A stretch of DNA of 64,000 nt from Pigmentiphaga sp. (GCF_033795525.1 NZ_JARYGM010000001.1:206614-270613); one strand, 5' to 3'. Counted from the first letter of the stretch, positions 1 through 43,512 are shown. Notes: a model not told the origin generated them from the sequence alone. Numbers and translations: made by a program.

Positions 1-190
1 AAACGGCCCTCCAGCGTGCGCCAATCGTAGACCAATCGGACCTCGATGTCAGCGCCGCCACACTGGGAGATCTACCTATCCCAAGCTTGGCGGAAACCCT
101 TGAGAAAATGCCTTTCCGGGGAACCGTTAAGATGCCGGTTAAGCTCGATTCGAGCCCGACAATTCCCATGAAGCCGTAGAAGGAGCCATC

Positions 191-427
191 GTGACCGACC
201 CCGAATTCCTGAAGGGACAAATCACCGCCCTGCAAAACGTGGTGAGCATGCTGATTTCCGCCCATCCCAACTCGCAGCAACTGCGCCAGGTCATGCAAGC
301 CATCGCGCAGCAGGTGGAGCCGACCCTGAACGAGGCCCACCCGTCATTCAAGAAGGGCTGGCAGAACGTGATCGCCACGCTGTGCCAGGCCGACGAGCCC
401 GCGCCCGAGGACGGCGAACGGCATTGA
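191..427 (+). CDS. hypothetical small protein (78 aa)
   Basis: GTG start 5 nt after AAGGAG (180-185). Predicted helical and soluble. No family recognised. Confidence 0.4.
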   Translation: MTDPEFLKGQITALQNVVSMLISAHPNSQQLRQVMQAIAQQVEPTLNEAHPSFKKGWQNVIATLCQADEPAPEDGERH

Positions 428-466
428 CGCCGGCCTACACGGCGCCAGCCTTGGTTTAGCCAAGCC

Positions 467-955
467 CTACCCGGCCGCGGCCAGGTCGGCGTAGTGCTGC
501 AGGCGGGCCAGCGCATAGCGCGCAGCCCGCTCGCGGACCTCGTTGCGTCCGCCGGTGAAGCGGCGCGTCTCGCTATACACCTTGGCCTCATTGTTGCGCT
601 CGAAGGCCCATGCAAAGCACTGCGTGCCGGCCGCGACGCCTGCCGCCCCGCCATCGGCCACCCCGGTGTTCGCAATCGCTGCATTAGCGCGGCTGCGAAG
701 CAGCGCGCCGCGGGCCATCGCGCGCGCCACCGGCTCGCTGGTGAGGTTATACGCTTTAAGAATCCTGGAGGGAACCCCCAACGCCTGCATTTTTGCTTCG
801 GGCGAGTAAGCCACGAAAGCGCAGTCCAGCAAAGCGCCCGCACCCTCGACGTCCGCCAGCATGGCTGCTATCAGCCCGGCGGTGCAGGATTCCGCGGTGG
901 CCAGCAACAGGCGGCGTTCCTGCATGTAGCGGGCGATGTGTTCGAGATTCTGCAC
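467..955 (-). CDS. pncC: CinA-family nicotinamide-nucleotide amidohydrolase (PncC-like)
   Basis: LLLATAESCTAGLIAAMLADVEGAGALLDCAFVAYSPEAKMQALGV matches the CinA C-terminal/PncC core (TAESCTGG...F.TYSN.AK). I trimmed the 229-aa ORF to GTG 955; ATG 925 is an alternative start. This gives about 162 aa, as in E. coli PncC. Confidence 0.75.
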   Translation of the reverse strand: MQNLEHIARYMQERRLLLATAESCTAGLIAAMLADVEGAGALLDCAFVAYSPEAKMQALGVPSRILKAYNLTSEPVARAMARGALLRSRANAAIANTGVADGGAAGVAAGTQCFAWAFERNNEAKVYSETRRFTGGRNEVRERAARYALARLQHYADLAAAG

Positions 956-1133
956 GCGCGGTCCCCGGTCGTGGCGATGACGCGCTTCAGCACGCGCCGT
1001 ACCCGGCGTGCCGGTTGCTGCGCTGCGCAAGGATGAGCAAATCTCTGGAAAGCAGTGTAAATCCTGCGCCTTCTGCCCGGGCATGCGCGACCAACCTCCC
1101 TCGCAACATGTCCCGATCCTCGTTCGGGCAGGC

Positions 1134-1148
1134 TGGCACAAGGCTTGC
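1134..1148 (+). promoter_or_regulatory. sigma54-type -24/-12 promoter candidate (TGGCAC-N5-TTGC)
   Basis: cTGGCACaaggcTTGCg is an exact match to the TGGCAC-N5-TTGC core. It lies 46 nt upstream of ATG 1194, in the correct orientation. Confidence 0.4.
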
Positions 1149-1193
1149 GATTGCACGCGTCCCCACTCGAACCATCCTTACTTGGAGGACCTC

Positions 1194-1457
1194 ATGCCTA
1201 CGCCTACCCCCCAGAAGCGCCCTCGAGGTTTTGCTGCCATGGACCCCCAGAAGCAGCGCGCCATTTCGGCAGAGGGCGGCCGGGCCGCACACCAGTCCGG
1301 CAACGCGCACGAATTCAACTCGGAAGAAGCCCGGGCCGCCGGGGCCTTGAGTCACGCCCATCGACGCCGCCGCGCGGCAGAAGCGCAAGCTCAGCAAGCC
1401 CAGGCCCAGGGCACCCCCCGGGAAGAACCGGTGCAGGCCAGCCCGGGCAGCTCGTGA
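1194..1457 (+). CDS. KGG-repeat general stress protein (YciG-like), 87 aa
   Basis: RGFAAMDPQKQRAISAEGGRAAHQSGNAHEFNSEEARAAG is the stress-induced KGG repeat motif. GGAGGA SD at 1185-1190. The 149-aa ORF was trimmed to ATG 1194. Confidence 0.8.
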   Translation: MPTPTPQKRPRGFAAMDPQKQRAISAEGGRAAHQSGNAHEFNSEEARAAGALSHAHRRRRAAEAQAQQAQAQGTPREEPVQASPGSS

Positions 1458-1465
1458 GCCCAAGC

Positions 1466-1492
1466 GCCCGGCTCGGCAACCGCCAGCCGGGC
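1466..1492. terminator. GC-rich hairpin between convergent genes
   Basis: gcccggct-N11-agccgggc forms an 8-bp stem between the KGG gene stop (1457) and the CBS gene stop (1505). No clear U tract. Confidence 0.3.
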
Positions 1493-1504
1493 CTATCCCG
1501 CGCG

Positions 1505-1936
1505 CTAGCGAAACAACTCGCCTGAAGCGCGCGCAGGCTCCGATATCCCCGCCAAGGTGTCGTCCGTGTCGCCGGCCTTGGTGGCCAAATCCCCCAACGA
1601 CACTACCCCGACCAACTCGTTGTTCTTGCCGAGGATGGGCATTCTGCGGATCTGTTCGTCGCGCATTTTGGCCTTGACCGTCTCGGCGTCTTCGTCTGCA
1701 TAGCACCAGCTCACATGGGCAGTCATCGCTTCGCGCACGCTGGCGGATGGCGATGCGCCTGCGGCTATGCAGCGTACCGCGATGTCGCGGTCGGTGACCA
1801 CGCCGATCAGGCGCCTGCCGTCGCAAACGGGCACCGCGCCGATATCCAGGTCGGCCATCAACTGTGCAGCGCGCTGTATCGACTCGTCGGCCGATAAGTA
1901 CGCCACGTCGCGGGTCATGATCTCTGCGATTTGCAT
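1505..1936 (-). CDS. CBS-domain pair protein (143 aa)
   Basis: MQIAEIMTRDVAYLSADESIQRAAQLMADLDIGAVPVCDGRRLIGVVTDRDI plus a second CBS repeat (MPILGKNNELVGVVSLGDL). AAGGAGAG SD precedes ATG 1936. The longer 186-aa ORF form was rejected. Confidence 0.85.
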   Translation of the reverse strand: MQIAEIMTRDVAYLSADESIQRAAQLMADLDIGAVPVCDGRRLIGVVTDRDIAVRCIAAGASPSASVREAMTAHVSWCYADEDAETVKAKMRDEQIRRMPILGKNNELVGVVSLGDLATKAGDTDDTLAGISEPARASGELFR

Positions 1937-1949
1937 GGGACTCTCCTTG

Positions 1950-1972
1950 AAAAAAAGCCGCAAATGCGGCTT
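1950..1972 (-). terminator. intrinsic-terminator-like hairpin plus U run in the CBS gene leader
   Basis: The minus strand reads AAGCCGC-AUUU-GCGGCUU followed by UUUUU, then immediately CAAGGAGAG and ATG. Confidence 0.55.
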
Positions 1973-1982
1973 GGGCGTGGGC

Positions 1983-1999
1983 AGCAACCGATATGCCCA
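1983..1999 (-). promoter_or_regulatory. sigma54-like -24/-12 promoter candidate
   Basis: The minus strand reads tGGGCATatcggTTGCt (GG-N10-GC spacing kept). The -12 C at 1984 puts the predicted +1 near 1972, 36 nt from ATG 1936. Confidence 0.35.
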
Positions 2000-2199
2000 T
2001 AGAGTCCCGCGCCCGCACAGGCCCAGAAGGCGACCTCGCAAGGGAAGGGAACGAGTCCACGGCAAACAAGCGCAGCAAAAGCCGGGCGAAAGGGAGCGGA
2101 AAGAAAAAGCGGGCGGGAACGAAACGTAGCCGGGCGGCTACTTTGAGATCTGCCCCGGAGGCGGACCGGATAGGCTAGCGCCTAAGCTAGGTATGCGAA

Positions 2200-2276
2200 T
2201 GGGGTGGCTGATGGGACTCGAACCCACGACAACCGGAATCACAATCCGGGACTCTACCAACTGAGCTACAGCCACC
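2200..2276 (-). tRNA. tRNA-His (anticodon GTG)
   Basis: The reverse complement is GGTGGCTGTAGCTCAGTTGGTAGAGTCCCGGATTGTGATTCCGG...GGTTCGAGTCCCATCAGCCACCCCA. It folds as a cloverleaf with anticodon loop TTGTGAT, the extra 5' G typical of tRNA-His and an encoded CCA. Confidence 0.95.
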
Positions 2277-2458
2277 ACGGTCAGCAATGCGTGCACTGCA
2301 AGGCGCAGGCACGAAAGAACGCCATTATAGCGAACTTTGCGGCCGCGTGCGCAACGCCCCGCCGGGGCGCTGCTACCCCCGGCTACCCCTGGGCGTCGCA
2401 ACCATATCCCGGTCATACGGCGTTGCTAGCTTCGTCGGCAGTCATCCAGGAGCCGCCG

Positions 2459-3490
2459 ATGAAGCTTACCCGTCTCAGTATCGCGACGTTCAACCTGTAC
2501 AACCTGAACGAGCCCGGCCGCCGCGTCTACACCGGCGAGGGCTGGAGCCAAGCCGAGTACCGCAAGAAAATCGACTGGACGGCCGGCCAGCTAACACTGC
2601 TCGATGCGGATGTATTCGGCTTTCAGGAATTGTGGCACAGGGATTCGCTTGCCCGTGCGTTGCAGGCGTCCGGCTTGGCCGGCACATACGACATGCTGGT
2701 ACCCGAAGACGCGGACGGTTCGCGGATCGTCTGCGCGGCCGTGGTCCGCAAGGGGCTGCTAGCCGGCGAGGCCGAATGGATCAGCGATTTTCCGGAGGCC
2801 TTCATGTTGCATTCGAGCGGGGACGACCCTCAGACGCCTCAGATTAGCGTCAATATCCGGGGGTTCTCCCGCCCCGTGTTGCATTTCACGATACAGCCGC
2901 GCGAGGATGGACCGCTGGTGCATGTTTATGTGTGCCATTTCAAATCCAAGGCCCCCACCCAGGTGTACAGAGAGGATTGGTACATCGACGCCAAATCCGC
3001 CTACGCGAAGCACGCCAAGAATCTGGGCGCGGCCCTCTCTACCATCCGCCGCACCGCCGAAGCGGCCGCGCTGCGCTTTTTGCTCAGCGAGCTGATGAAG
3101 GGCAACGACACGCCGGTAATCGTGCTGGGCGACATCAACGACGGCCAGCACAGCAACACCGCCAATATCCTCACCGATCAGCCCCGCTACCTGGTCGGGG
3201 ACTCCGAAGGAGGCGGCGACGTCGCGCTTTATACGGCGCAGACCCTGCAGGAATACCGGGACACGCGCGACGTGTACTACACCCACGTCTACCAGGACAT
3301 CCGGGAGTCACTCGATCACATCCTCGTCAGCCAGGAGTTCTACGACAATAGCCGCAAGCGCCTATGGATGTTCGACGGGCTGGTCATCAACAACGACCAT
3401 CTGGACTTCGACGACCACAAACGGCTAGGTGCCAACGACCATGGGATCGTCCGCGCCACGTTCAATTATCGTCCGAACAGCCAAAATTGA
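2459..3490 (+). CDS. endonuclease/exonuclease/phosphatase (EEP) family protein
   Basis: LSIATFNLYNLN..., ADVFGFQELW, VCHFKSK, VIVLGDINDG and DHILVS...NDHGIV are EEP catalytic motifs. AGGAG lies before ATG 2459. The upstream part of the 428-aa ORF overlaps the tRNA-His and was discarded. Confidence 0.8.
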   Translation: MKLTRLSIATFNLYNLNEPGRRVYTGEGWSQAEYRKKIDWTAGQLTLLDADVFGFQELWHRDSLARALQASGLAGTYDMLVPEDADGSRIVCAAVVRKGLLAGEAEWISDFPEAFMLHSSGDDPQTPQISVNIRGFSRPVLHFTIQPREDGPLVHVYVCHFKSKAPTQVYREDWYIDAKSAYAKHAKNLGAALSTIRRTAEAAALRFLLSELMKGNDTPVIVLGDINDGQHSNTANILTDQPRYLVGDSEGGGDVALYTAQTLQEYRDTRDVYYTHVYQDIRESLDHILVSQEFYDNSRKRLWMFDGLVINNDHLDFDDHKRLGANDHGIVRATFNYRPNSQN

Positions 3491-3553
3491 GCTGACGGCA
3501 CAAGCCGGGGGACCACGGTGCCAAGCCGCGGCCTCCGGCGATGCACAAAAGCA

Positions 3554-3582
3554 AAAAGCCCCTGCATGACAGGGGCTTTTTC
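3554..3582. terminator. bidirectional rho-independent terminator
   Basis: aaaaaGCCCCTGcatgaCAGGGGCttttt, with A/T runs on both sides. It sits between the EEP gene (+) and the csp gene (-). Confidence 0.75.
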
Positions 3583-3597
3583 TCGGCTGGGACCGCT

Positions 3598-3801
3598 TTA
3601 CAGCACGCGGATCTTCGAAGCCTGCGGGCCCTTGGGACCCTGGACGGCCTCGAAGCTGACCTTTTGGTTCTCGTACAGCGTCTTGCGCCCTTCCGCCTGG
3701 ATCTCGGAGAAATGAGCGAACAAATCCTTGCCTCCATCATCCGGCATGATGAAGCCGTATCCCTTGTCGTCGTTGAACCATTTAACGATGCCTGTGGCCA
3801 T
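3598..3801 (-). CDS. CspA-family cold-shock protein (67 aa)
   Basis: [34 protein letters not shown] carries the RNP1/RNP2 motifs. The ORF was trimmed to ATG 3801. Confidence 0.95.
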
Positions 3802-3934
3802 GATGCACTTCCTTCCTGAATATGTACTTGCCGCGAATACCACAAAACCGGAATCAAGGGTGGGCCGTGACCAATGGAGAGCCGACTTGCCGACCAAACC
3901 GCGTGTAGAACCCTAACCTGACACCTTGAAAATC

Positions 3935-3963
3935 ACTATGCGATGCAATGATCGCTTAGTCAA
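3935..3963 (-). promoter_or_regulatory. sigma70-type promoter candidate for the csp gene
   Basis: The minus strand reads TTGACT-17 nt-CATAGT. This would give a 5' UTR of about 125 nt, typical for cspA-type genes. Confidence 0.35.
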
Positions 3964-4183
3964 CTCGTTTTCGTTTCCGTCGGATACAACCTTATTACCC
4001 GAATACGACCGTTATTTGAATCGGGATTTTGCAAATATCGCCGGGTTAATGGCCAGATTAGGCAGGCTTGACTACAAAATGCGAAGCATAATGCGGCATA
4101 TCACCCACATAGTGGACAAAATCAACTATTTGCGCGAGGGTTTCCACGTAGATACTTGGATCTCAACCCTCTAAACCTATCGT

Positions 4184-4219
4184 TTTCCCGTATAAGGGAA
4201 ATACCTATAAAAATTTCCC
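4184..4219. promoter_or_regulatory. TTTCCC/GGGAAA repeat cluster (possible activator site)
   Basis: TTTCCCgtataaGGGAAA palindrome (4184-4201) plus a third TTTCCC (4214-4219). It lies in AT-rich DNA about 95-130 nt upstream of the -24 motif at 4314. Confidence 0.25.
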
Positions 4220-4313
4220 GACAGCCGGCGAACGGTCTAGAAGAAATTACAAGCCGATCGTCCCATATTTACATGGACAGGACAGCATAATGATTTTGGG
4301 TATGGTTCATCGC

Positions 4314-4327
4314 GGCACGCGAATTGC
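4314..4327 (+). promoter_or_regulatory. sigma54-like -24/-12 promoter candidate
   Basis: cGGCACGcgaaTTGCg matches GGCACG-N4-TTGC. It is 89 nt upstream of ATG 4416. The leader contains an 8-bp hairpin (4362-4369/4379-4386). Confidence 0.4.
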
Positions 4328-4415
4328 GGACGCATAAAGACGCGGTTTTCACGCCGCGGCAGGCCCCGCTTCATGGCTGCGGGGCCGAGCGAATGCGTCA
4401 AATAGGAGAAAGTTT

Positions 4416-4655
4416 ATGGATCAGCAGAAACAGCAGCCCGGTCAGACCCAACCCGGCCAAGGCCAGCAAAGCCCGCGGCAGAACGAGCAGCAGACCGGCA
4501 TGGACCAGCAGCAGGGTCAACGCGGTTCGCAGCAACGTCCGAACGTTCAGCCCGGACAGCAGAACCCTGGCCAGCAGCAACAGGAACAACAACAGCAGCG
4601 TGGCCAACAGCCCGGCCAACAGAACAAACAACAACAGCAAAAACCGAATCAGTAA
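4416..4655 (+). CDS. glutamine-rich low-complexity small protein (79 aa)
   Basis: TAGGAGAAAG SD 5 nt before the ATG. The protein is almost entirely Q/P/G/N, with no hydrophobic segment. Confidence 0.6.
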   Translation: MDQQKQQPGQTQPGQGQQSPRQNEQQTGMDQQQGQRGSQQRPNVQPGQQNPGQQQQEQQQQRGQQPGQQNKQQQQKPNQ

Positions 4656-4785
4656 CGGCTAGTCCGCAGCCGCCGGCCGTGCCCAGCCCCTCCAGGGCCA
4701 AGCCTGAAGTGCGAATAGTGCACCGCGCCGGCGGCGCTTCTACCAGCCTCGATCGCGCGCGGGGAACGCCCGGCACCGAGGACTA

Positions 4786-5043
4786 CTACCCTCTTTCCAG
4801 CTTGTCGATATAGCGCTTGGCCGCTCTTTCGGCGTACCGGTGAGCCTCGAACTCCGTGCCGAACACCTGGTCGTCGCCCAGATGCTGCTCGGCGGGCAGC
4901 GCGTGGAACTGTGCCGCGGGATCGAGCGAGATGGTGGCCAGTCCTTCGAACAACACCGTCATGCCGTCCCGGGGATGATTGACCGGGCGTGCCACAGTGC
5001 GGATGTAGTAGCCCTTGTAGAAGTCTCCTGCGCCGTCGGACAT
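4786..5043 (-). CDS. hypothetical protein (85 aa)
   Basis: GGAGGG SD before ATG 5043. The 134-aa ORF was trimmed. No family recognised. Confidence 0.45.
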   Translation of the reverse strand: MSDGAGDFYKGYYIRTVARPVNHPRDGMTVLFEGLATISLDPAAQFHALPAEQHLGDDQVFGTEFEAHRYAERAAKRYIDKLERG

Positions 5044-5195
5044 AGCACCCTCCTGTAGACAATACATGCGTGAGGCAAGGGGATGACCCAGAAAGTTCAA
5101 CGTCACTGCCAAGGGTATCCGTCCGATATACCGATTTCTCTTAGGAATATCACTTGCTGAACCGCGGTCTGAACAAGAACACTCCGGCAACCCGC

Positions 5196-6734
5196 ATGAC
5201 TGGTACGTACTCCGATGAAATCTGGTGGAAAAGCGCGGTGGTATATCAGATCTATCCGCGCTCCTTTGCCGACTCCAACGGCGACGGTGTGGGCGACATC
5301 CCGGGCATACTGGCGCACCTGGACCACATCTGCAGACTGGGCGCCGATACGGTATGGGTGTCGCCGGTATTCAAGTCGCCCATGGCCGATGCGGGCTACG
5401 ACATCAGCGACTATTGCGATATCGATCCCCTCTTCGGGACGCTGGACGATGTCCAGCGCCTGATCGACGAAGCACATGCACGCGGCCTGCGCCTGCTGCT
5501 CGACTTCGTACCCAACCACACGTCCGATCGCCATCCCTGGTTTATCGAATCGAGGTCGTCGCGCGCGAGCCCCAAGCGCGACTGGTACATCTGGCGCGAC
5601 GAACCGAACGACTGGCGCGCCGCGCTCGGAGCCGGCAGCGCCTGGACCTGGGATGAGAAGACCGGCCAGTACTACCTGCATTTTTTTCTGCCGCAGCAAC
5701 CCGACCTCAACTGGCGCAACCCGGAAGTAGTGGAAGCCATGCATGGCGTGCTGCGCTTCTGGCTGGACCGGGGTGTCGACGGTTTTCGTATCGACGTAGC
5801 GCACTGCACCGGCAAGGACCCCACCTTCGCCGACCACCCTCGCTGCCTGGCTGGGGAAGCGCTGGTCGACTTCAACGACCAGCCATACAGCCACGAAGTA
5901 CTGCGCGGCATACGGCGGCTGGTCGATAGCTACCCCGGCGACCGGGTGCTCGTGGGCGAAGTCAACATCCGCTCGACGGCAAGCGTGCTCCAGTACTACG
6001 GCGCGGGCGACGAACTGCACATGTCGTTCAACTTCCCGCCGCTGGACGCCCCCTGGGATCCCATCGTCTTTCGCACGTGCATACGCGAGGTGGACACCCT
6101 CATGCGGCCGGCAGATGCCTGGCCCACCTGGGTGCTGTCGAACCACGACAACGTGCGGCATCGCACGCGTTATAACGGTTCGCTGCGGCGCGCACGGGCG
6201 GCGGCGATCCTGCTGCTGTCGCTGCGAGGCACGCCCTTCCTGTTCCAGGGTGAGGAACTGGGACTGGAGGACGCCCGCATCGACCCGGACCGGCGCGTCG
6301 ACCCGGGCGGCCGCGATGGCTGCCGGGCGCCGCTGCCGTGGACCGAGCAGCCGCCGCATGGCTGGAACGGCGCCCCGCCCTGGCTACCGTTCCCCCCGAA
6401 CCCAGGTCAGCATTCGGCCGAGCGGCAATGGGCCGACTCCGGATCCATCTTCCACCTGTACCGGCATGCGCTGGAGCTCCGCAGGGCAAGTCCGGCACTG
6501 CGGCTGGGCGACTGGGAGGAAATCGATTCCCCGCCCGAAATCCTGGCCTTCCGGCGCCGCTACGGCGACGACGTCCGGCTGGTCTGCGTGAACTTCGCCG
6601 ACCGCGAACTGCAATTCACGCCTCCGGGCAAATGGCGCGCTGCCCTGTACAGCGAGGGCGGGCCGGCGGCGGGAACTCGCTTCCCCGGCAAGCTGGAACG
6701 CGAACAGGCTGTAATCCTCGAACCGGAGACATGA
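5196..6734 (+). CDS. GH13 alpha-glucosidase (oligo-1,6-glucosidase/trehalose-6-P hydrolase-like)
   Basis: WWKSAVVYQIYPRSFADSNGDGVGDIPG, the four GH13 regions LLLDFVPNHTS, GVDGFRIDVAH, VGEVN and LSNHDN. Start set at ATG 5196. Confidence 0.9.
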   Translation: MTGTYSDEIWWKSAVVYQIYPRSFADSNGDGVGDIPGILAHLDHICRLGADTVWVSPVFKSPMADAGYDISDYCDIDPLFGTLDDVQRLIDEAHARGLRLLLDFVPNHTSDRHPWFIESRSSRASPKRDWYIWRDEPNDWRAALGAGSAWTWDEKTGQYYLHFFLPQQPDLNWRNPEVVEAMHGVLRFWLDRGVDGFRIDVAHCTGKDPTFADHPRCLAGEALVDFNDQPYSHEVLRGIRRLVDSYPGDRVLVGEVNIRSTASVLQYYGAGDELHMSFNFPPLDAPWDPIVFRTCIREVDTLMRPADAWPTWVLSNHDNVRHRTRYNGSLRRARAAAILLLSLRGTPFLFQGEELGLEDARIDPDRRVDPGGRDGCRAPLPWTEQPPHGWNGAPPWLPFPPNPGQHSAERQWADSGSIFHLYRHALELRRASPALRLGDWEEIDSPPEILAFRRRYGDDVRLVCVNFADRELQFTPPGKWRAALYSEGGPAAGTRFPGKLEREQAVILEPET

Positions 6735-37566: not shown

Positions 37567-37885
37567 GATCGTCTCCTGTGCGGCTGCCGACGCAGCCATA
37601 GCCTTGTTGTGAGGCTATGGTAGGAGGACGGTCTATGCTCGTCCAACACTTAAATTCGCACGATTGAGACCTGATGAGTCTTTATTCTGAACGACTGATA
37701 AGGACCGACGGCAGTACATCGCCCAGTTCCGACATGGCCTCCGCTAATGACAATAGTTAGTGCGCATCGCCGATAGGGAAGGAATTCGAAGCTATTCGCC
37801 TTGATGAGCGACGACCGGCTTTTGCGTGAGCTTAGCGCCTAAGGCAAACTCTGTGCGATGCAAAGCACCGCGAACGGGAGACCCC

Positions 37886-38697
37886 ATGTCCAAGCCACCG
37901 GATCTCGATGCATATTTCGGCCGTATCGGCTATGTCGGCGCCGCTACCCCTACGGCCGACACGCTGCGCAACCTCGTCCTGCACCATGTGCGGACCATCG
38001 CCTTCGAAAGCGTCGACCCTTTCCTGGGCCGGCCGGTCAGCCTGGCACTCGCCGACATCGAGCAGAAACTGGTCCACGGCCGCCGTGGCGGTTACTGCTA
38101 CGAGCACAATGGCTTGTTCGGCGCGGTGCTGCGTGCGCTGGGTTTCAAGGTGACGACGCTGTCGGCGCGAGTCTTGTGGGGGCAGCCAGAAGACGCTACC
38201 GTACCGCGCGCCCACATGCTCTTGAAGGTGGAGCTGGGCGATGCGCCGCTGATCGTGGACGTCGGGTTCGGCGGCCAGACCCCCACGTGCCCGCTAAGGC
38301 TGCACACCGATCTTCCCCAGCCCACGCCCCACGGCCATTGCCGACTGCTGTCCGACGAGCAGGGCTGGCGGCTGCAGGCCGATGTGCGAGGTGAGTGGCG
38401 CACCCTGTACCGGTTCGGCATCGAGCCGGATTTTCCGCCCGATTACGAGATAGCCAATTACTACCTGTCCACGCATCCGGAATCGCCTTTCGTATCGAAC
38501 CTGATCGCAGCACGCGCCACCGCCCAAGGCCGGCTGGCCTGCACAACCGGGACTACACGCGTTACGGCGCGGATGGCAGCGCCGTGCGCCGCAGGCTGGA
38601 AAGCGCCGCAGAGATCAGGGAAGTGCTGCGCCGCGAATTCCTGGTGGAACTGCCGCATACCGCCGAAGGCGACCGTAAACTGGACGCGCTTCCCTAG
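37886..38697 (+). pseudogene. arylamine N-acetyltransferase (NAT), frameshifted
   Basis: DLDAYFGRIGY, RGGYCYEHNGLF (catalytic Cys) and LIVDVGFGG lie in one frame up to ...ATAQGRLA at about 38539. The expected C-terminus LHNRDYTRYGADGS...LVELPH continues in the -1 frame to the TAG at 38695-38697. Confidence 0.75.
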
Positions 38698-38809
38698 GGG
38701 GCAGCGTCGCTCCCACGTCAGCCGGCCTATAATCCTACGATCGGGCGGCAGCACCCTGTGCGCCGAACACGCCGGCGCCACGCCGCCGGCCACTACCATT
38801 CAAGGCCCC

Positions 38810-39196
38810 ATGGAGACCACCCACCGGCTGCGTCGATGTCTCGCCTGGCTGGCGCTTTGCGCCATGTGCCTAGGGGTCTTCGCGCCGGTTGTTTCGCAGT
38901 GGTTGGCGAATGCGCGAACCGTCGTATGGGTCCACATCTGCAGCGAGGCCGGCGCAGCGCCGGTGGCGATCGCCGTATCGCACGGACACTCGCCGAAGGC
39001 CCCGGCCGTTGGGGATGGCTACTGCCCTTATTGCACCCTGGCGCAGCATTGGCCGTTCGCGCCGCCAATGTCCGCCGGCTCGATCCCGCCTCCCCAGGGC
39101 GCTACGCTGGCCTATGCCGGCTCGGCGCTTCCTTCCCCGTCCCTTGCTCCGCGCTGGCACGCGCACGCACCGCGCGCGCCGCCCCTTCTTTCCTGA
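38810..39196 (+). CDS. cruR: DUF2946-family CruR-like copper-responsive upstream ORF
   Basis: N-terminal hydrophobic helix, CPYC at 39023-39034, and a C-terminus ...HAPRAPPLLS* with RAPP at 39173-39184. It precedes a TonB receptor and a PepSY gene. Confidence 0.65.
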   Translation: METTHRLRRCLAWLALCAMCLGVFAPVVSQWLANARTVVWVHICSEAGAAPVAIAVSHGHSPKAPAVGDGYCPYCTLAQHWPFAPPMSAGSIPPPQGATLAYAGSALPSPSLAPRWHAHAPRAPPLLS

Positions 39197-39300
39197 TCCG
39201 TCCCGATACGCCCATGGTGCGGCCTGCGTGGCGGCCTCCATGGCGCCAGCTTGCGCGCGCGTGATGCGCGCGGGGTAGTCATTCGCTTGAGGAGGGGAAA

Positions 39301-39723
39301 GTGCATCCGGCCTGGACGGTGATGCGCGGACTCGCAGGTAGACACTGGCATTGCGCCGCCTGGTGGCTGGCGCTGGCGGTGTTCGTCCTCAAGGCCACGA
39401 TTCCGCAGGGATTCATGCCGGGCAAAGCCGACGGCCGGGAAGCGTTCGTCGTCCTGTGTTCGGCGGGTGGCCCGCTGCCGTGGCGAATAGCGCTTCCGGG
39501 CGGGGACACCGGGGACGATGGTCCGACCCCGGTGCATGTTCTGGATCTGGCTTGCCCGTTTGCAGCGGCCGCAACGCCGGGACTGCTTGCCGGCCCGGGC
39601 CCAGGTCTGACGGGCAGCCTGCGCGTCGCCTACCTGCTTCCAGCTCCAGCGTTTACGTCGCAGTGCGCCGTCCAGCCGGCCCGTGCGCCACTGGGCGCGC
39701 GGGCGCCGCCGCATTCCGCGTGA
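39301..39723 (+). CDS. second DUF2946-like ORF ending in a RAPP motif
   Basis: GTG start after GAGGAGGGG. TM helix AAWWLALAVFVLKA and the LKATIPQGFMPG...VVLCSAGG pattern. C-terminus ...GARAPPHSA* with RAPP at 39700-39711. Confidence 0.55.
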   Translation: MHPAWTVMRGLAGRHWHCAAWWLALAVFVLKATIPQGFMPGKADGREAFVVLCSAGGPLPWRIALPGGDTGDDGPTPVHVLDLACPFAAAATPGLLAGPGPGLTGSLRVAYLLPAPAFTSQCAVQPARAPLGARAPPHSA

Positions 39724-39789
39724 AGACCCGAGACCGGGCCGGGCGCGTTGCCTGGCCCTCTTCCCACGATCTTCTACCGGAATGCTGCC

Positions 39790-41940
39790 ATGAAGCTCTC
39801 TTTTCGCGCCGCGGCGCGCCGCGCGCCTTCGGTGCGCGCCTCCCTGTACTGGCTTTGCCTGCCGCCCTTGGTTCTCATTGCCCAAGCGGGCTGGGCCGAG
39901 GATACCCCTGTCACGCTCCCTTCGATTTCGGTCACGGCGGAGCCCGAAACACCGCTGGACCAGCCTGCCTCGACGGGATCGAATCTGCCGTTGACGCGGC
40001 GGGAGACGCCAGCCAGTGTCGATGCGATCACGCGTGCCCAGCTCGACGAACGCGGCGATACCCGGCTGACCGACGCCATCATCCGCGCGCCAGGCTTCAG
40101 TTCTATCGGCCACCCTGGCAACGGCGGCTCCGGGCTGTCGGTACGCGGCTTTACCGATGCAGCATCGGTAATGCAGCTCTACGACGGCATACGCCAATAC
40201 GGACAGATTGGCGTGACGTTTCCGTTCGATACGTGGGCGGTGGACCGTATCGAGGTGCTGCGCGGGCCGGCTTCGGTCATCTACGGCGAAGGCGCGATCG
40301 GCGGCGTGGTGAACGTGATTCCGAAGAAACCGCGCCGCGGACCAGTCGAGAACCAGATCCGCGCCACGCTCGGAACGGATGCGACGCGGGGGCTGGCTTT
40401 TGGCAGCGGCGGCTCGATCGACGAGCAGTTCTCGTATCGTTTCGATATCAGCGGCGACCGGTCGGCCAACTGGGTGGATCGGGGCGATTCGCGCAACCTG
40501 GCGATGTCGGGGGCGCTGCAGTGGGAGCCATCGCCCGACTTCCGCCTCAAGCTGAGCCATGCCCAGGGCTGGCAGCGGCCGATGCGGTATTTCGGCACGC
40601 CGCTGGTGGACGGGCGGCTGGATGATGCCTTGCGCGGGAAGAACTACAACGTGGATGACGCGCTGATCCGCTACAACGACCAGTGGACCGAGCTGTCGGC
40701 GGAATGGACGCCGAACGATGCGACCACGGTGCGCAGCCGCCTCTACCGGATCGGCAGCCGCCGCCACTGGCGCAATGCGGAGTACTACGATTACCTGCCG
40801 GCCACCGGCCTCGTCCAGCGCTCGTCCTACACCGAGATCCTGCATGACCAGTGGGAGATCGGCAACACCACCGATGCGACGTTCAAAGGCCGCCTGCTGG
40901 GCCTGCCCAGCCAGGTATCGGTAGGGGTATCGCTCAGCCACAGCGCGTTCCGGCACACCAACAATTCGCCTTATGCGGGCACGTCGGAGGTCGACCCTTA
41001 CGACGTCGATCCTGGCCACTTCGTGAACGTCGCGGGCACCTCTCCGCGGTATCGGAACGGGGCTTGGCAATACGCGGTTTTCGGCGAAAACCGGTTGGCG
41101 CTGACGGATAAGTGGTCGGTGCTGGCCGGGATCCGTTATGACCATGCGGAGGTCGCGCGCCGCGACCTGGTCCTGGGCCAGGAGACGCTGTCGCGTTCGT
41201 TTTCCCACGTCGGCTGGCGGGCAGGTACGGTGTACGACCTGACGCCGGACCTGGCCCTCTATGGCCAGTATGCCGAGGCCGCCGACCCTATCGGCGCGCT
41301 GTTGATGCTGTCTCCCTCCAACGGCCGCTTCGACCTGGCCAGCGGCCGGCAGGTGGAGCTGGGCATCAAGCAGACGTTCTGGGGCGGCAAGGGCGACTTC
41401 ACACTGGCGGGCTATCACATCGTCAAGAAGAATCTGGTGACCGCCGACGTGGCCGATCCCTCGGTCAGCGTTCAAGTCGGCCAACAATCGTCGCGTGGCA
41501 TCGAAGCCACCCTCGGCCTGGAATTGGCCTCCGGCTGGCGGCTGGACGCCAACGCCGCGCTGCTGCGTGCCCGCTACGACGACTTCACCGAATCGGCGGG
41601 CGGCGTTGCGGTTTCGCGCGCCGGCAACACCCCTGTCAACGTCCCGGAACGTCAGGCCAGCATGTGGCTGAGCTGGCGCTTCCTGCCTGCCTGGACTGCC
41701 AGCGCCGGCATGCGCTACGTGGGGCGGCGCTTTGCCGACCGCGCCAATACGTTGGAATTGCCGTCATACACGGTGGCGGACCTGTCGCTGCAATGGCAAC
41801 CGCGGCGCGACACGACCATCTCATTGCGCGGCTTCAACGTATTCGACCGCGACTATGTAACCACCGCCTATTACCACCCCACGCAATGGCTCTATGGCAG
41901 CGGCCGGCGCGTGGAGCTGACCGTGCTCCATCGATTCTAG
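39790..41940 (+). CDS. TonB-dependent outer-membrane receptor (copper/siderophore type, BfrG-like)
   Basis: Signal peptide, TonB-box-like TPVTLPSISVTA, plug motifs (VDAITRAQLDERGD, GLSVRGF, IEVLRGPASVIYGEGAIGGVVNVI) and a C-terminal ...VELTVLHRF. Confidence 0.9.
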   Translation: MKLSFRAAARRAPSVRASLYWLCLPPLVLIAQAGWAEDTPVTLPSISVTAEPETPLDQPASTGSNLPLTRRETPASVDAITRAQLDERGDTRLTDAIIRAPGFSSIGHPGNGGSGLSVRGFTDAASVMQLYDGIRQYGQIGVTFPFDTWAVDRIEVLRGPASVIYGEGAIGGVVNVIPKKPRRGPVENQIRATLGTDATRGLAFGSGGSIDEQFSYRFDISGDRSANWVDRGDSRNLAMSGALQWEPSPDFRLKLSHAQGWQRPMRYFGTPLVDGRLDDALRGKNYNVDDALIRYNDQWTELSAEWTPNDATTVRSRLYRIGSRRHWRNAEYYDYLPATGLVQRSSYTEILHDQWEIGNTTDATFKGRLLGLPSQVSVGVSLSHSAFRHTNNSPYAGTSEVDPYDVDPGHFVNVAGTSPRYRNGAWQYAVFGENRLALTDKWSVLAGIRYDHAEVARRDLVLGQETLSRSFSHVGWRAGTVYDLTPDLALYGQYAEAADPIGALLMLSPSNGRFDLASGRQVELGIKQTFWGGKGDFTLAGYHIVKKNLVTADVADPSVSVQVGQQSSRGIEATLGLELASGWRLDANAALLRARYDDFTESAGGVAVSRAGNTPVNVPERQASMWLSWRFLPAWTASAGMRYVGRRFADRANTLELPSYTVADLSLQWQPRRDTTISLRGFNVFDRDYVTTAYYHPTQWLYGSGRRVELTVLHRF

Positions 41941-41949
41941 GAGACGCCT

Positions 41950-43512
41950 ATGCTGACGCGATCGCGTGGCAAGCGCGCCATTTACCTGATCCACCGATGG
42001 ACCGGCATCGCCGCCTGCCTGCTGATGGTGGCTTGGTTCGCCAGCGGCATGGTCATGCTGTTCGTAGGCTACCCCAAGCTCACGCCTTGGGAACGGCTGG
42101 GACACTTGCCCGACCTGCCGGCTGGTCCATGCTGGGCGCCGGTGGAACGGGCGCTGGCCGCAAGCGCCGATCCGGCCGCCGTCACCGAAATCATGCTGAC
42201 AACGGTGCGCGGCCGGCCGACTCTGCGCCTGCGGGAAGGCGACGGCCGCTATCTCGCCGTCGATGCGCGGACGGCCTCGCCCATGCCCCCCGCGGATGCA
42301 GGCGACGCGGTCGAGAGCGCACGCGCCTATCTGCCCGGCGTAGGCGCCCGCTACCTCGGCTCGGTAGACGAGGACCGGTGGACGCATTCAGCCACGCTGA
42401 ATCCCCATCGTCCGCTGCACAAGGTCCAGATGAACGACCCTGCCAGCACGCTACTTTATGTGTCATCGGCCACGGGGGAAGTCGTGCTGGACGCGCCCCG
42501 CGCGCAACGCCTGTGGAACTACGCCGGCGCATGGCTCCATTGGCTCTATATGTTCCGAGACCGGCCCGTCGACCCGGGATGGAGCTGGCTGGTCATCTCG
42601 CTCTCCGCAATGGGGACCATGGTGTCGGTGACCGGCACGGCAGCCGGTCTTTGGCGCTGGCGTTTCCGCGGCACCTACAAGTCGGGCGCCCGCTCGCCTT
42701 ATCGCGACGCTTGGCTGAGATGGCACCACATCGCCGGCCTTGTGTTTGCGGGGATCACCTTTGCGTGGATCTTCAGCGGACTGATGTCGATGAACCCGGC
42801 CGGCCTGTTCCACCCCTCGGGCCTGCGGCCGGACCTCGCCGCCTATCGCGGTGCGACGCCCGGCCAGTCGCGGCCCACGCTGGACCTGACTGAGGTTACC
42901 GCGGCCTTGTGGGAGCAAGGGTTCGAGCCGCGCGAAATCGAATGGCGGGTATTGGGGGGCCGGCCCTACTTGTTGGCCCGCGACGGCGCCGGCCACACCC
43001 GCCTGGTCACCGGCGATGCCGGCGCAATGAGAATTCTTGGACAATGGTCGCCACCCCAGCTGAAATACGCCGCCACGCGCTTGCTTGCCGCGCCCATCGC
43101 CGCCTATCGCCGGCTCGACGACTACGATGCCTACTACTATGGCCGGGAGCCGGAAGCCATGATGGGCGCGAGCGAACGCCGGCTGCCAGTCTGGCGTGCG
43201 CAGTTTGCAGACGCCAGCAAGACCTGGGTCTATCTGGATCCGTATACCGGCGACCCGGCATTGAGCGTGGACGGGCGGCAGCGCCTGGGCCGATGGCTAT
43301 TCAATTTCCTTCACAGCTGGGACCTGCCGCCCATGCTCGCGGCCGGCGTCTGGCGGGAGGCGGTGCTGATCCTGATGAGTCTGGGCGGCCTGGCCTTGAG
43401 CGTGACCGGGACTGTCATCGCGTACCGGCGGGTACGGATGGCGGCGCGCCGCCCTGGGCGGGGCCGGACTAGCCTTGCGGCGCCGCCGGCACGGTATCCA
43501 CCGCCGCAATAA
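41950..43512 (+). CDS. PepSY-associated TM-helix protein (PiuB-like)
   Basis: IYLIHRWTGIAACLLMVAWFASGMVML, repeated HxW motifs (LHWLYMF, LRWHHIAG, NFLHSWD) and four TM segments. Confidence 0.85.
   Translation: MLTRSRGKRAIYLIHRWTGIAACLLMVAWFASGMVMLFVGYPKLTPWERLGHLPDLPAGPCWAPVERALAASADPAAVTEIMLTTVRGRPTLRLREGDGRYLAVDARTASPMPPADAGDAVESARAYLPGVGARYLGSVDEDRWTHSATLNPHRPLHKVQMNDPASTLLYVSSATGEVVLDAPRAQRLWNYAGAWLHWLYMFRDRPVDPGWSWLVISLSAMGTMVSVTGTAAGLWRWRFRGTYKSGARSPYRDAWLRWHHIAGLVFAGITFAWIFSGLMSMNPAGLFHPSGLRPDLAAYRGATPGQSRPTLDLTEVTAALWEQGFEPREIEWRVLGGRPYLLARDGAGHTRLVTGDAGAMRILGQWSPPQLKYAATRLLAAPIAAYRRLDDYDAYYYGREPEAMMGASERRLPVWRAQFADASKTWVYLDPYTGDPALSVDGRQRLGRWLFNFLHSWDLPPMLAAGVWREAVLILMSLGGLALSVTGTVIAYRRVRMAARRPGRGRTSLAAPPARYPPPQ

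Follow-up and report, generated by a model that had tools for sequence, protein, structure and literature searches.

A second DUF2946-type leader between a cruR-like open reading frame and a TonB-dependent receptor gene in Pigmentiphaga: a candidate for serial control by arrest peptides

CruR (Bp2923) is the product of a copper-responsive upstream open reading frame (uORF) that heads the cruR-crtA(bfrG)-crpH operon of Bordetella pertussis (Roy et al. 2022, PMC9426467; operon order also in PMC12914433 and PMC13038864). In this family, copper-relieved translational arrest controls Rho-dependent transcription termination (Roy et al. 2022, PMC9426467), and arrest of CruR has been placed in vitro at a RAPP motif, with two Pro codons in the P and A sites of the ribosome (Fujiwara 2025, PMC12992588). 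Here we describe an operon of this type in a 64,000-nucleotide (nt) stretch of DNA from Pigmentiphaga sp. (GCF_033795525.1, NZ_JARYGM010000001.1:206614-270613; called the window below), in which an additional ORF, ORF2 (39301-39723, + strand), lies between a cruR-like ORF (ORF1) and the gene for a TonB-dependent receptor (TBDT). A preliminary description of this DNA took the known cruR system to have a single uORF, which agrees with Roy et al. 2022 (PMC9426467). Tandem cruR-type uORFs are not described in the searchable text of Roy 2022, Ozturk 2023, the 2025 CutF preprint, Fujiwara 2025 or the 2026 CrtA/CrpH papers.

Another relevant leader, CutF of Rhodobacter capsulatus, is DUF2946-like and senses copper as a nascent chain, thereby exposing the ribosome-binding site of cutO (Ozturk et al. 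2023, PMC9973294; bioRxiv 10.1101/2025.02.05.636593). Specifically, a ribosome that stalls on a Pro-rich C-terminal motif opens a stem-loop over the next start, which is the mechanism that we propose for ORF2 and the receptor gene, and the two systems share a short intergenic distance. They differ in the metal-binding motif and in the sense of the response. Copper induces the CutF stall and so turns on a detoxifying oxidase, whereas a stall on ORF2 would switch on an uptake receptor, and copper would thus be expected to relieve it. The motif diversity of such leaders is documented by 29 sequence clusters (Ozturk 2023, PMC9973294), and a tandem is not reported in the searchable text of that study. 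A RAPP or RGPP motif near the stop codon, an N-terminal localization signal and a position upstream of a regulated gene also link ORF2 to the arrest peptides ApdA, ApdP and the SecM-like class (Sakiyama 2021; Morici 2024, PMC10951233; Fujiwara 2025, PMC12992588), and TonB-dependent receptor and PepSY genes are among the downstream genes enriched for arrest uORFs (Fujiwara et al., PMC12992588). These peptides monitor Sec/YidC activity through pulling force; arrest of ORF2 is a prediction. In TnaC-type leaders, a ribosome stalled at the end of the leader prevents Rho-dependent termination before the structural genes; there the leader is single, and its ligand, tryptophan, induces the stall instead of relieving it.

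ORF2 encodes 140 amino acids (aa) and begins with GTG at 39301, 3 nt downstream of the Shine–Dalgarno (SD) sequence GAGGAGGGG (gaggagggg, 39289-39297). Its N terminus carries basic residues and then the hydrophobic segment AAWWLALAVFVLKA, with a transmembrane (TM) helix at ~39355-39399 and the sequence IPQGFMP at 39400-39420. Cysteines are found at residues 18, 53 (39457-39459), 85 and 122, of which C85 opens the sequence CPFA (39553-39564), and CXXC is absent. The C terminus reads GARAPPHSA, with RAPP at residues 134-137 of 140 (39700-39711), followed by H-S-A and the stop codon (39721-39723); a 66-nt spacer then leads to the receptor ATG at 39790. The GTG start, SD, TM segment, four cysteines without CXXC, RAPP ending and 66-nt spacer had been listed in the preliminary description and are present as given there, as is the position of ORF2 between a first uORF and the receptor gene; the first uORF is a DUF2946/CruR leader, and a PepSY_TM gene comes after the receptor gene. 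Of the four cysteines, relatives share C53 and C85 but not C18 or C122.

The shared ending of the two ORFs is not a product of chance. RAPP occurs 12 times among the ~128,000 codons of the six-frame translation of the 64-kb window, and RAPP followed by exactly three codons and a stop occurs three times: in ORF1, in ORF2 and in one 18-codon frame. The probability that a given ORF ends in this way is ~1e-4 by this count, so that a second such ORF beside the first is beyond chance, as had been supposed. The motif statistics, together with the conservation described below, rule out that ORF2 is a chance ORF.

ORF2 resembles CruR in its DUF2946 superfamily membership, N-terminal export or TM segment, semi-conserved Cys, RAPP three residues from the stop, a Cys motif 45 residues before RAPP, and the TBDT and PepSY_TM genes that follow. 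It is unlike CruR in having CPFA for CXXC, in the IPxGFMP motif after the TM helix and in its place as second ORF of the operon; moreover, its spacer to the receptor gene measures 66 nt versus 162 nt for CruR, and two leader subtypes stand in series instead of one uORF. An AlphaFold2 model of ORF2 (mean predicted local distance difference test score, pLDDT, 68.5) contains a helix over residues 3-33 (pLDDT up to 95), in keeping with the N-terminal signal or TM segment of the CruR family, a beta-hairpin over residues 47-64 that includes C53, and a short helix at CPFA; residues 11-70 have pLDDT values of 77-95, and the C-terminal half is disordered. This predicted fold is compatible with a co-translationally folding sensor, without proving one.

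An exhaustive HMMER search was carried out over 1.8 billion cluster representatives. CXXC is missing from nearly all of the ~70 representatives (110-180 aa) found to be related to ORF2, and in most of them R-[AG]-P-P lies a few residues from the stop. Eight residues are invariant in an alignment of 36 sequences (P35, G37, M39, C53, C85, R134, P136 and P137 in ORF2 numbering), and ORF2 has them all. The first three form part of the IPxGFMP motif directly after the TM helix, C85 belongs to the CPFA motif, and the last three lie in the terminal RAPP that is typical of the CruR family. The subfamily consensus is CPFA or CAFG at the position of CXXC, which is itself found there in 1 of the 36 aligned members; ORF1 has CPYC at this point and ORF2 has C85-P-F-A88.

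The Pfam DUF2946 model (PF11162) matches 32 of these 36 members at E<=0.1 (best 6.7e-10). Furthermore, a profile–profile comparison (hhalign) of the ORF2 subfamily with 40 canonical CXXC leaders yields a probability of 98.1% (E=5.8e-13) and pairs C85-P-F-A88 with CPYC, C53 with the semi-conserved CruR Cys, and RAPP with RAPP. A protein 100% identical to ORF2 is named 'DUF2946 domain-containing protein' by NCBI. The distance from the Cys motif to RAPP, which is conserved within 1-2 residues and functionally important in CruR (Roy et al., PMC9426467), is 45 aa in ORF2 (A88 to R134), 46 in ORF1, 45 in Bp2923 and 45-46 in single-Cys leaders of other genera. On these profile comparisons, ORF2 is a DUF2946 protein that has diverged and carries another residue in place of the second Cys of CXXC. 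The absence of CXXC is common to the whole subfamily and is thus not a lesion of ORF2. A suggestion that ORF2 might be a duplicate of ORF1 did not hold: the two proteins are only 26% identical and ORF2 groups with the separate single-Cys subfamily, which rules out a recent local duplication.

Both ORF2 and its RAPP motif, on whose conservation the preliminary description had made its proposal depend, are retained in a second species. The ortholog in Pigmentiphaga sp. NML080357 (P0002, at locus L007) is 56% identical, ends in GARAPPRSA before the stop, and keeps the SD and GTG as well as all eight family-invariant residues. Synonymous sites are strongly diverged between the two species (dS, the number of synonymous substitutions per site, is ~0.8-1.3), and the ratio of nonsynonymous to synonymous rates (dN/dS) is 0.27 for ORF1, 0.41 for ORF2 and 0.17 for the receptor gene. 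The four-ORF unit, ORF1-ORF2-TBDT-PepSY_TM, recurs in NML080357 and in several metagenome contigs, while its upstream flank varies, being an AraC-type regulator gene, a tRNA-like stretch with an integrase gene or, in the window, an arylamine N-acetyltransferase (NAT) gene. Because the unit is kept whole while the flank varies, ORF1 and ORF2 travel with the receptor. When metagenomes were scanned with the three relatives closest to ORF2, the only matches were NML080357-like copies and one distant fragment, and no new tandem lineage emerged; a homolog search with ORF1, made to trace its origin, gave a single weak match.

The tandem is rare. We scanned GTDB with the receptor, taking one genome per species, and obtained 80 loci (49-77% identity); the relatives in Alcaligenaceae and Burkholderiales mostly have a DUF2946 leader upstream. 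The 4 kb upstream of each receptor were searched for ORFs with R[AG]PP <=12 residues from the stop. One such ORF is present at 55 of the 80 loci and none at 23, mostly from Cupriavidus. Two were found at two further loci; in one of these the second is a chance frame overlapping the receptor start, and the sole genuine tandem (1/80) is that of Pigmentiphaga NML080357. In the available data, therefore, the mixed tandem of a canonical and a single-Cys leader is specific to the Pigmentiphaga lineage, which answers the earlier call to compare one-leader with two-leader synteny.

The leaders at the 80 loci are of three types. Most are canonical, with CXXC. A second type has a single Cys (CAFG, CPFG or CPFA) and is found in Bordetella petrii, B. 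tumulicola, Verticiella and the Burkholderia cepacia complex; a single Cys (CAFG/CPFG) takes the place of CXXC in ~16 of 57 leaders before CrtA-like receptors, 45-46 residues from RAPP (loci L018, L023, L035-L039, L042, L043, L045, L047-L050 and L066). The third type (HCCSGGC...RGPPAx and stop) occurs in Bordetella sp. LUAb4, Achromobacter sp. HZ34 and A. aloeverae, whose receptors are the three closest to that of the window (71-72% identity; L008, L009 and L010). Leader types have thus evidently been exchanged among closely related receptors. Leaders of the third type (L008 2968-3639, L009 3212-3673 and L010 922-3375) have a TM segment, IICTASGP and HCCSGGCAMAGA, and end in RPRGPPA[AV] before the stop, that is, in RGPP plus two residues. 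At the Burkholderia cepacia complex loci, the leader ends ~1.7 kb before the receptor match, with a ~490-aa gene between them.

Single-Cys leaders also serve as the sole leader before a TBDT gene, with or without PepSY_TM, in Achromobacter deleyi, Zavarzinia, Sphingomonas and a metagenome contig. The subfamily relatives of ORF2 are first in their operons, and ORF2 is the second ORF, directly before the TBDT and PepSY_TM genes. Its 48%-identical relative P0004 has no RAPP ORF within 123 nt upstream. Judged by where they occur, ORF2-type leaders are competent alone.

We also find an RNA structure that links the predicted stall site of ORF2 to the start region of the receptor gene (39712-39784, + strand), both by minimum free energy (MFE) folding and by consensus folding in two species. 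In the MFE fold of 39690-39815 (z = -1.97), the codons just after the ORF2 RAPP pair with the sequence just 5' of the receptor ATG. The outer helix joins 39712-39718 with 39778-39784 and 39722-39726 with 39770-39774, such that its 5' arms (in gcattccg, 39711-39718, and gtgaaga, 39720-39726) cover ORF2 codons 138-140 and the stop, and its 3' arms lie in cggaatgc (39778-39785) and tcttctac (39770-39777). An inner hairpin pairs 39736-39743 with 39751-39758. The NML080357 sequence (L007) is predicted to fold alike. Consensus folding of the two sequences with RNAalifold predicts 21 pairs, of which 19 belong to the stall-to-start structure, with four compensatory and no broken pairs; one compensatory change is in the outer helix (A-U to G-C) and three are in the inner hairpin. 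Apart from a conserved block of 19 nt ahead of the receptor ATG, the spacer has diverged from that of NML080357. The duplex energy of the ORF2 arm against the receptor start region is -20.8 kcal/mol versus -11.6 +/- 3.5 kcal/mol for controls, ~2.6 standard deviations better, and 3 of 287 control arms equal it. The predicted arrangement is therefore of the CutF type, in that a stem-loop hides the start region and its 5' arm can be reached by a stalled ribosome.

The 3' end of ORF1 and the sequence just beyond it constitute a candidate Rho utilisation (rut) region (39064-39245, + strand; C 46-51%, G ~26%) with a C/G ratio of 2.0 to 2.35 in sliding 78-nt windows. A C>G stretch is also present in NML080357 and in most beta-proteobacterial leaders (median C/G 2.0), and the rut site of B. 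pertussis cruR was mapped to a comparable region (Roy et al. 2022, PMC9426467). As a separate observation, CXXC leaders of Xanthomonas and Stenotrophomonas (RGPP plus 3-10 residues; L054, L056, L061, L062, L067, L069, L071, L076 and L078) lack a C>G bubble, with a maximum C/G of ~1.0-1.2 versus ~2.0 for the beta-proteobacterial leaders, and these gamma-proteobacterial leaders may operate without a Rho-dependent output.

With moderate confidence, we read the two ORFs as nascent-peptide arrest leaders in series, with the receptor made only when ribosomes stall at both ORF1 and ORF2. In this model we infer the arrest itself, its responsiveness to copper, the involvement of Rho and any signal that releases ORF2. 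By analogy with B. pertussis, a ribosome on ORF1 would stall at RAPP under copper scarcity and shield the C-rich rut region, so that transcription would proceed; copper binding to the ORF1 CXXC would release the stall and Rho would terminate. A ribosome stalled on the ORF2 RAPP would have its P and A sites at 39706-39711 and would cover the mRNA to about the stop codon. Because CruR arrests with the RAPP Pro codons in the P and A sites, an ORF2-stalled ribosome would cover the 5' arm of the helix. Its occupancy of this arm would free the receptor start region, as in SecM-secA and CutF-cutO, and the stall would probably also keep the 66-nt spacer covered.

A further step, which we consider conceivable yet doubtful, is that the two stalls form an AND gate in which ORF1 reports cytoplasmic copper and ORF2 a second condition, the receptor being made only while both persist. 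Candidates for this second input, offered just as tentatively, are copper in the periplasm or membrane, the redox state, a different metal or the force of membrane insertion. The different ligand chemistry and the AND/OR logic raised in the preliminary description are likewise conjecture. Equally speculative is the assignment of sensor parts, which might comprise the TM anchor, IPxGFMP and the Cys53/Cys85 pair of ORF2, with a single Cys leaving the ribosomal tunnel at arrest.

Several points weigh against serial arrest control. The support for it is entirely computational. ORF2 alone has no match in Pfam or NCBIfam, and the DUF2946 model fails on it even at E<=1. The z-score of the local fold is modest, and its covariation comes from only two species-level sequences in a region of 72% G+C. 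The C>G bubble of ORF2, at 1.55 (1.82 in NML080357), is weaker than the family median of 2.0. Consensus scans of 38400-40000 revealed no sigma-70 promoter and no intrinsic terminator; since the promoter scan covered the sigma-70 consensus, an internal promoter may lie before ORF2. Over 52 leaders, pairing between the stall arm and the next start was observed 20 times versus 16 expected (P=0.10), in a test better controlled than an earlier, noisy family-wide one that used predicted starts. This lack of significant enrichment indicates that such pairing is a feature of the locus and that unmasking is not a rule of the family. In both species, MFE and consensus folding alike pair the ORF1 RAPP codons with the ORF2 SD and GTG, but 14 of 107 controls equal this pairing, the fold z-score is +1.0 and the helix shows no covariation. 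As a means of coupling, this pairing was therefore set aside and is kept as a weak possibility. Thus, of the serial relay put forward in the preliminary description, the second arrest-controlled stage is consistent with the conserved helix between the ORF2 stall site and the receptor start, and RNA coupling between ORF1 and ORF2 lacks statistical support.

A further objection concerns sensing, as ORF2 lacks the CXXC that is the copper sensor of CruR. The CXXC-to-SXXS mutant of CruR kept expression and lost copper control (Roy et al., PMC9426467), so absence of the second Cys might make a leader constitutive. From the invariant C53, C85 and M39, the conserved 45-residue spacer and the role of related leaders as sole leaders elsewhere, we argue that ORF2 senses something. 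Its ligand is possibly copper, held by a Cys53/Cys85 site with or without Met39; the candidate ligand set would be C53 and C85, and perhaps M39 as well. A single-Cys DUF2946 relative, P0019, is encoded mid-cluster with ZnuA and ABC-3 (Zn/Mn ATP-binding cassette transporter) genes on a metagenome contig (L093, 4001-4417), a context that hints that the subfamily is not limited to copper.

The same data can be read in ways that dispense with the helix, with arrest or with function altogether. ORF2 might be a CruR-like leader that acts through Rho alone, its stalled ribosome barring Rho so that transcripts extend into the receptor gene, and its helix with the receptor start being incidental. The sole experimentally dissected TBDT-linked member of the family does use Rho-dependent termination, the C>G bubble of ORF2 is moderate, an intrinsic terminator was not found in the scanned region, and the pairing of stall arm with next start is not general in the family. 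This reading leaves unexplained a helix that is conserved with compensatory changes, the retention of the 19-nt block when the other spacer sequence has diverged, an arm-to-start energy that is exceptional among controls, and a spacer far shorter than that of B. pertussis, and we judge it unlikely. More improbable still is that ORF2 encodes a small membrane-anchored protein acting in trans, for example in copper handling at the inner membrane, with RAPP as a family relic. Its gene is nearly always immediately 5' of a receptor gene, the invariant R134, P136 and P137 near the stop combined with a disordered C-terminal half are the signature of an arrest peptide, and neither CruR nor CutF can be detected as a mature protein, both acting in cis only. 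These observations stand against the fairly confidently predicted TM helix and beta-hairpin, the conserved IPxGFMP, C53 and C85, which could form a metal site, and the family member that sits inside the ZnuA/ABC-3 cluster rather than at the head of an operon.

That ORF2 is a decaying remnant, an original leader that became superfluous once a canonical cruR arrived upstream of it, seems very improbable to us. Its missing second Cys, its dN/dS above that of the receptor gene and the failure of the Pfam model on the single sequence could be signs of decay, and its apparently solitary 48%-identical relative would fit ORF2 as the older element. Loss of CXXC, however, is a property of the whole subfamily, and constraint on ORF1 is similarly relaxed. 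Despite the divergence at synonymous sites, ORF2 has also retained the eight invariant residues, its length, the SD and GTG, RAPP-X3-stop and the downstream helix. Serial arrest control by two leaders thus remains the reading that we favour.

The DUF2946/CruR family, arrest at RAPP, unmasking of a ribosome-binding site and the diversity of metal-binding motifs were already known. New here is an explicit single-Cys branch heading CrtA-type receptor operons, which contradicts the description of CXXC as 'invariant'. Also new are the natural tandem of two leader subtypes and the conserved structure that links the second stall site to the receptor start. CruR is currently the sole characterised arrest peptide that senses a transition metal for uptake control, and its sensing has been credited to the "invariant" CXXC. 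The large single-Cys branch has one Cys at that site yet retains the spacer, the arrest motif and the place before copper-type receptors, so its sensing chemistry must differ or use another Cys. The tandem offers a ready-made comparison of both sensors on one mRNA. It likewise lends itself to testing whether relays or logic gates can be built by chaining arrest peptides, and how Rho-based and unmasking outputs combine; the AND gate, if true, would be the first multi-input gene switch made entirely of arrest peptides. Its practical reach is modest, given computational evidence and a tandem found only in Pigmentiphaga (two species-level versions), and the interest is mainly for specialists in arrest peptides and copper homeostasis.

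All four ORFs of the operon are co-oriented within 38810-43512 (+ strand). ORF1 (38810-39196, 128 aa) is a straightforward CruR member (Pfam DUF2946, E=3.1e-15) that is kept in NML080357, with CPYC at residues 72-75 (39023-39034) and RAPP at residues 122-125 (39173-39184), followed by three codons and the stop. The TonB-dependent receptor gene (39790-41940, 716 aa) has Plug and beta-barrel Pfam domains, matches TIGR01783 and is CrtA/BfrG-like by synteny. It is followed by a gene for a PepSY_TM protein (41950-43512, 520 aa; Pfam PepSY_TM, E=1.8e-14), the CrpH-like third operon gene, and this gene order is shared with loci L001-L006. CrtA copper TonB-dependent transporters usually have a PepSY_TM gene downstream and often cruR upstream (Hachmi et al. 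2026, PMC12914433); here the receptor has both of its expected domains, with PepSY_TM after it and a cruR ahead, and its relatives at 49-77% identity share this synteny, which makes it a candidate member of that family. By gene order, the locus is a cruR-crtA-crpH-type copper-acquisition operon plus one additional ORF.

The 104-nt spacer between ORF1 and ORF2 (39197-39300), which ends with the ORF2 SD, contains a GC-only hairpin (gcgcgcg tgatg cgcgcgc, 39255-39269) that lacks a U tract and whose structure is kept in NML080357. Roy et al. postulated pausing, and by analogy the hairpin may serve as a site where RNA polymerase pauses. An Rfam search of 38500-40000 returned no family; a sub-threshold match to a viral frameshift element on the opposite strand was taken as chance.

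Upstream of ORF1, a perfect TATAAT (38729-38734) lies 76 nt 5' of the ATG, followed by a C-rich leader (C/G ~1.9, 38752-38829); the consensus scan gave no acceptable -35 element for it, and the region is not conserved in NML080357. The NAT gene (37826-38697; Pfam Acetyltransf_2, E=7e-66, profile positions 3-198 of 240) is apparently frameshifted near 38540-38560, such that its frame continues into ORF1 as a 456-aa ORF, with the likely NAT C terminus in another frame (38395-38697). Either this is a real pseudogene or it reflects an assembly error in the metagenome-assembled genome, and the frameshift may explain why ORF1 has no separate protein-database entry. On a Pigmentiphaga-like metagenome contig (L001), a tRNA-like sequence (5170-5300) lies directly 5' of ORF1 and is preceded by a phage-type integrase gene and an AlpA-like gene (1-5142). 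The operon thus borders an integration hotspot, and its upstream neighbourhood is strain-variable.

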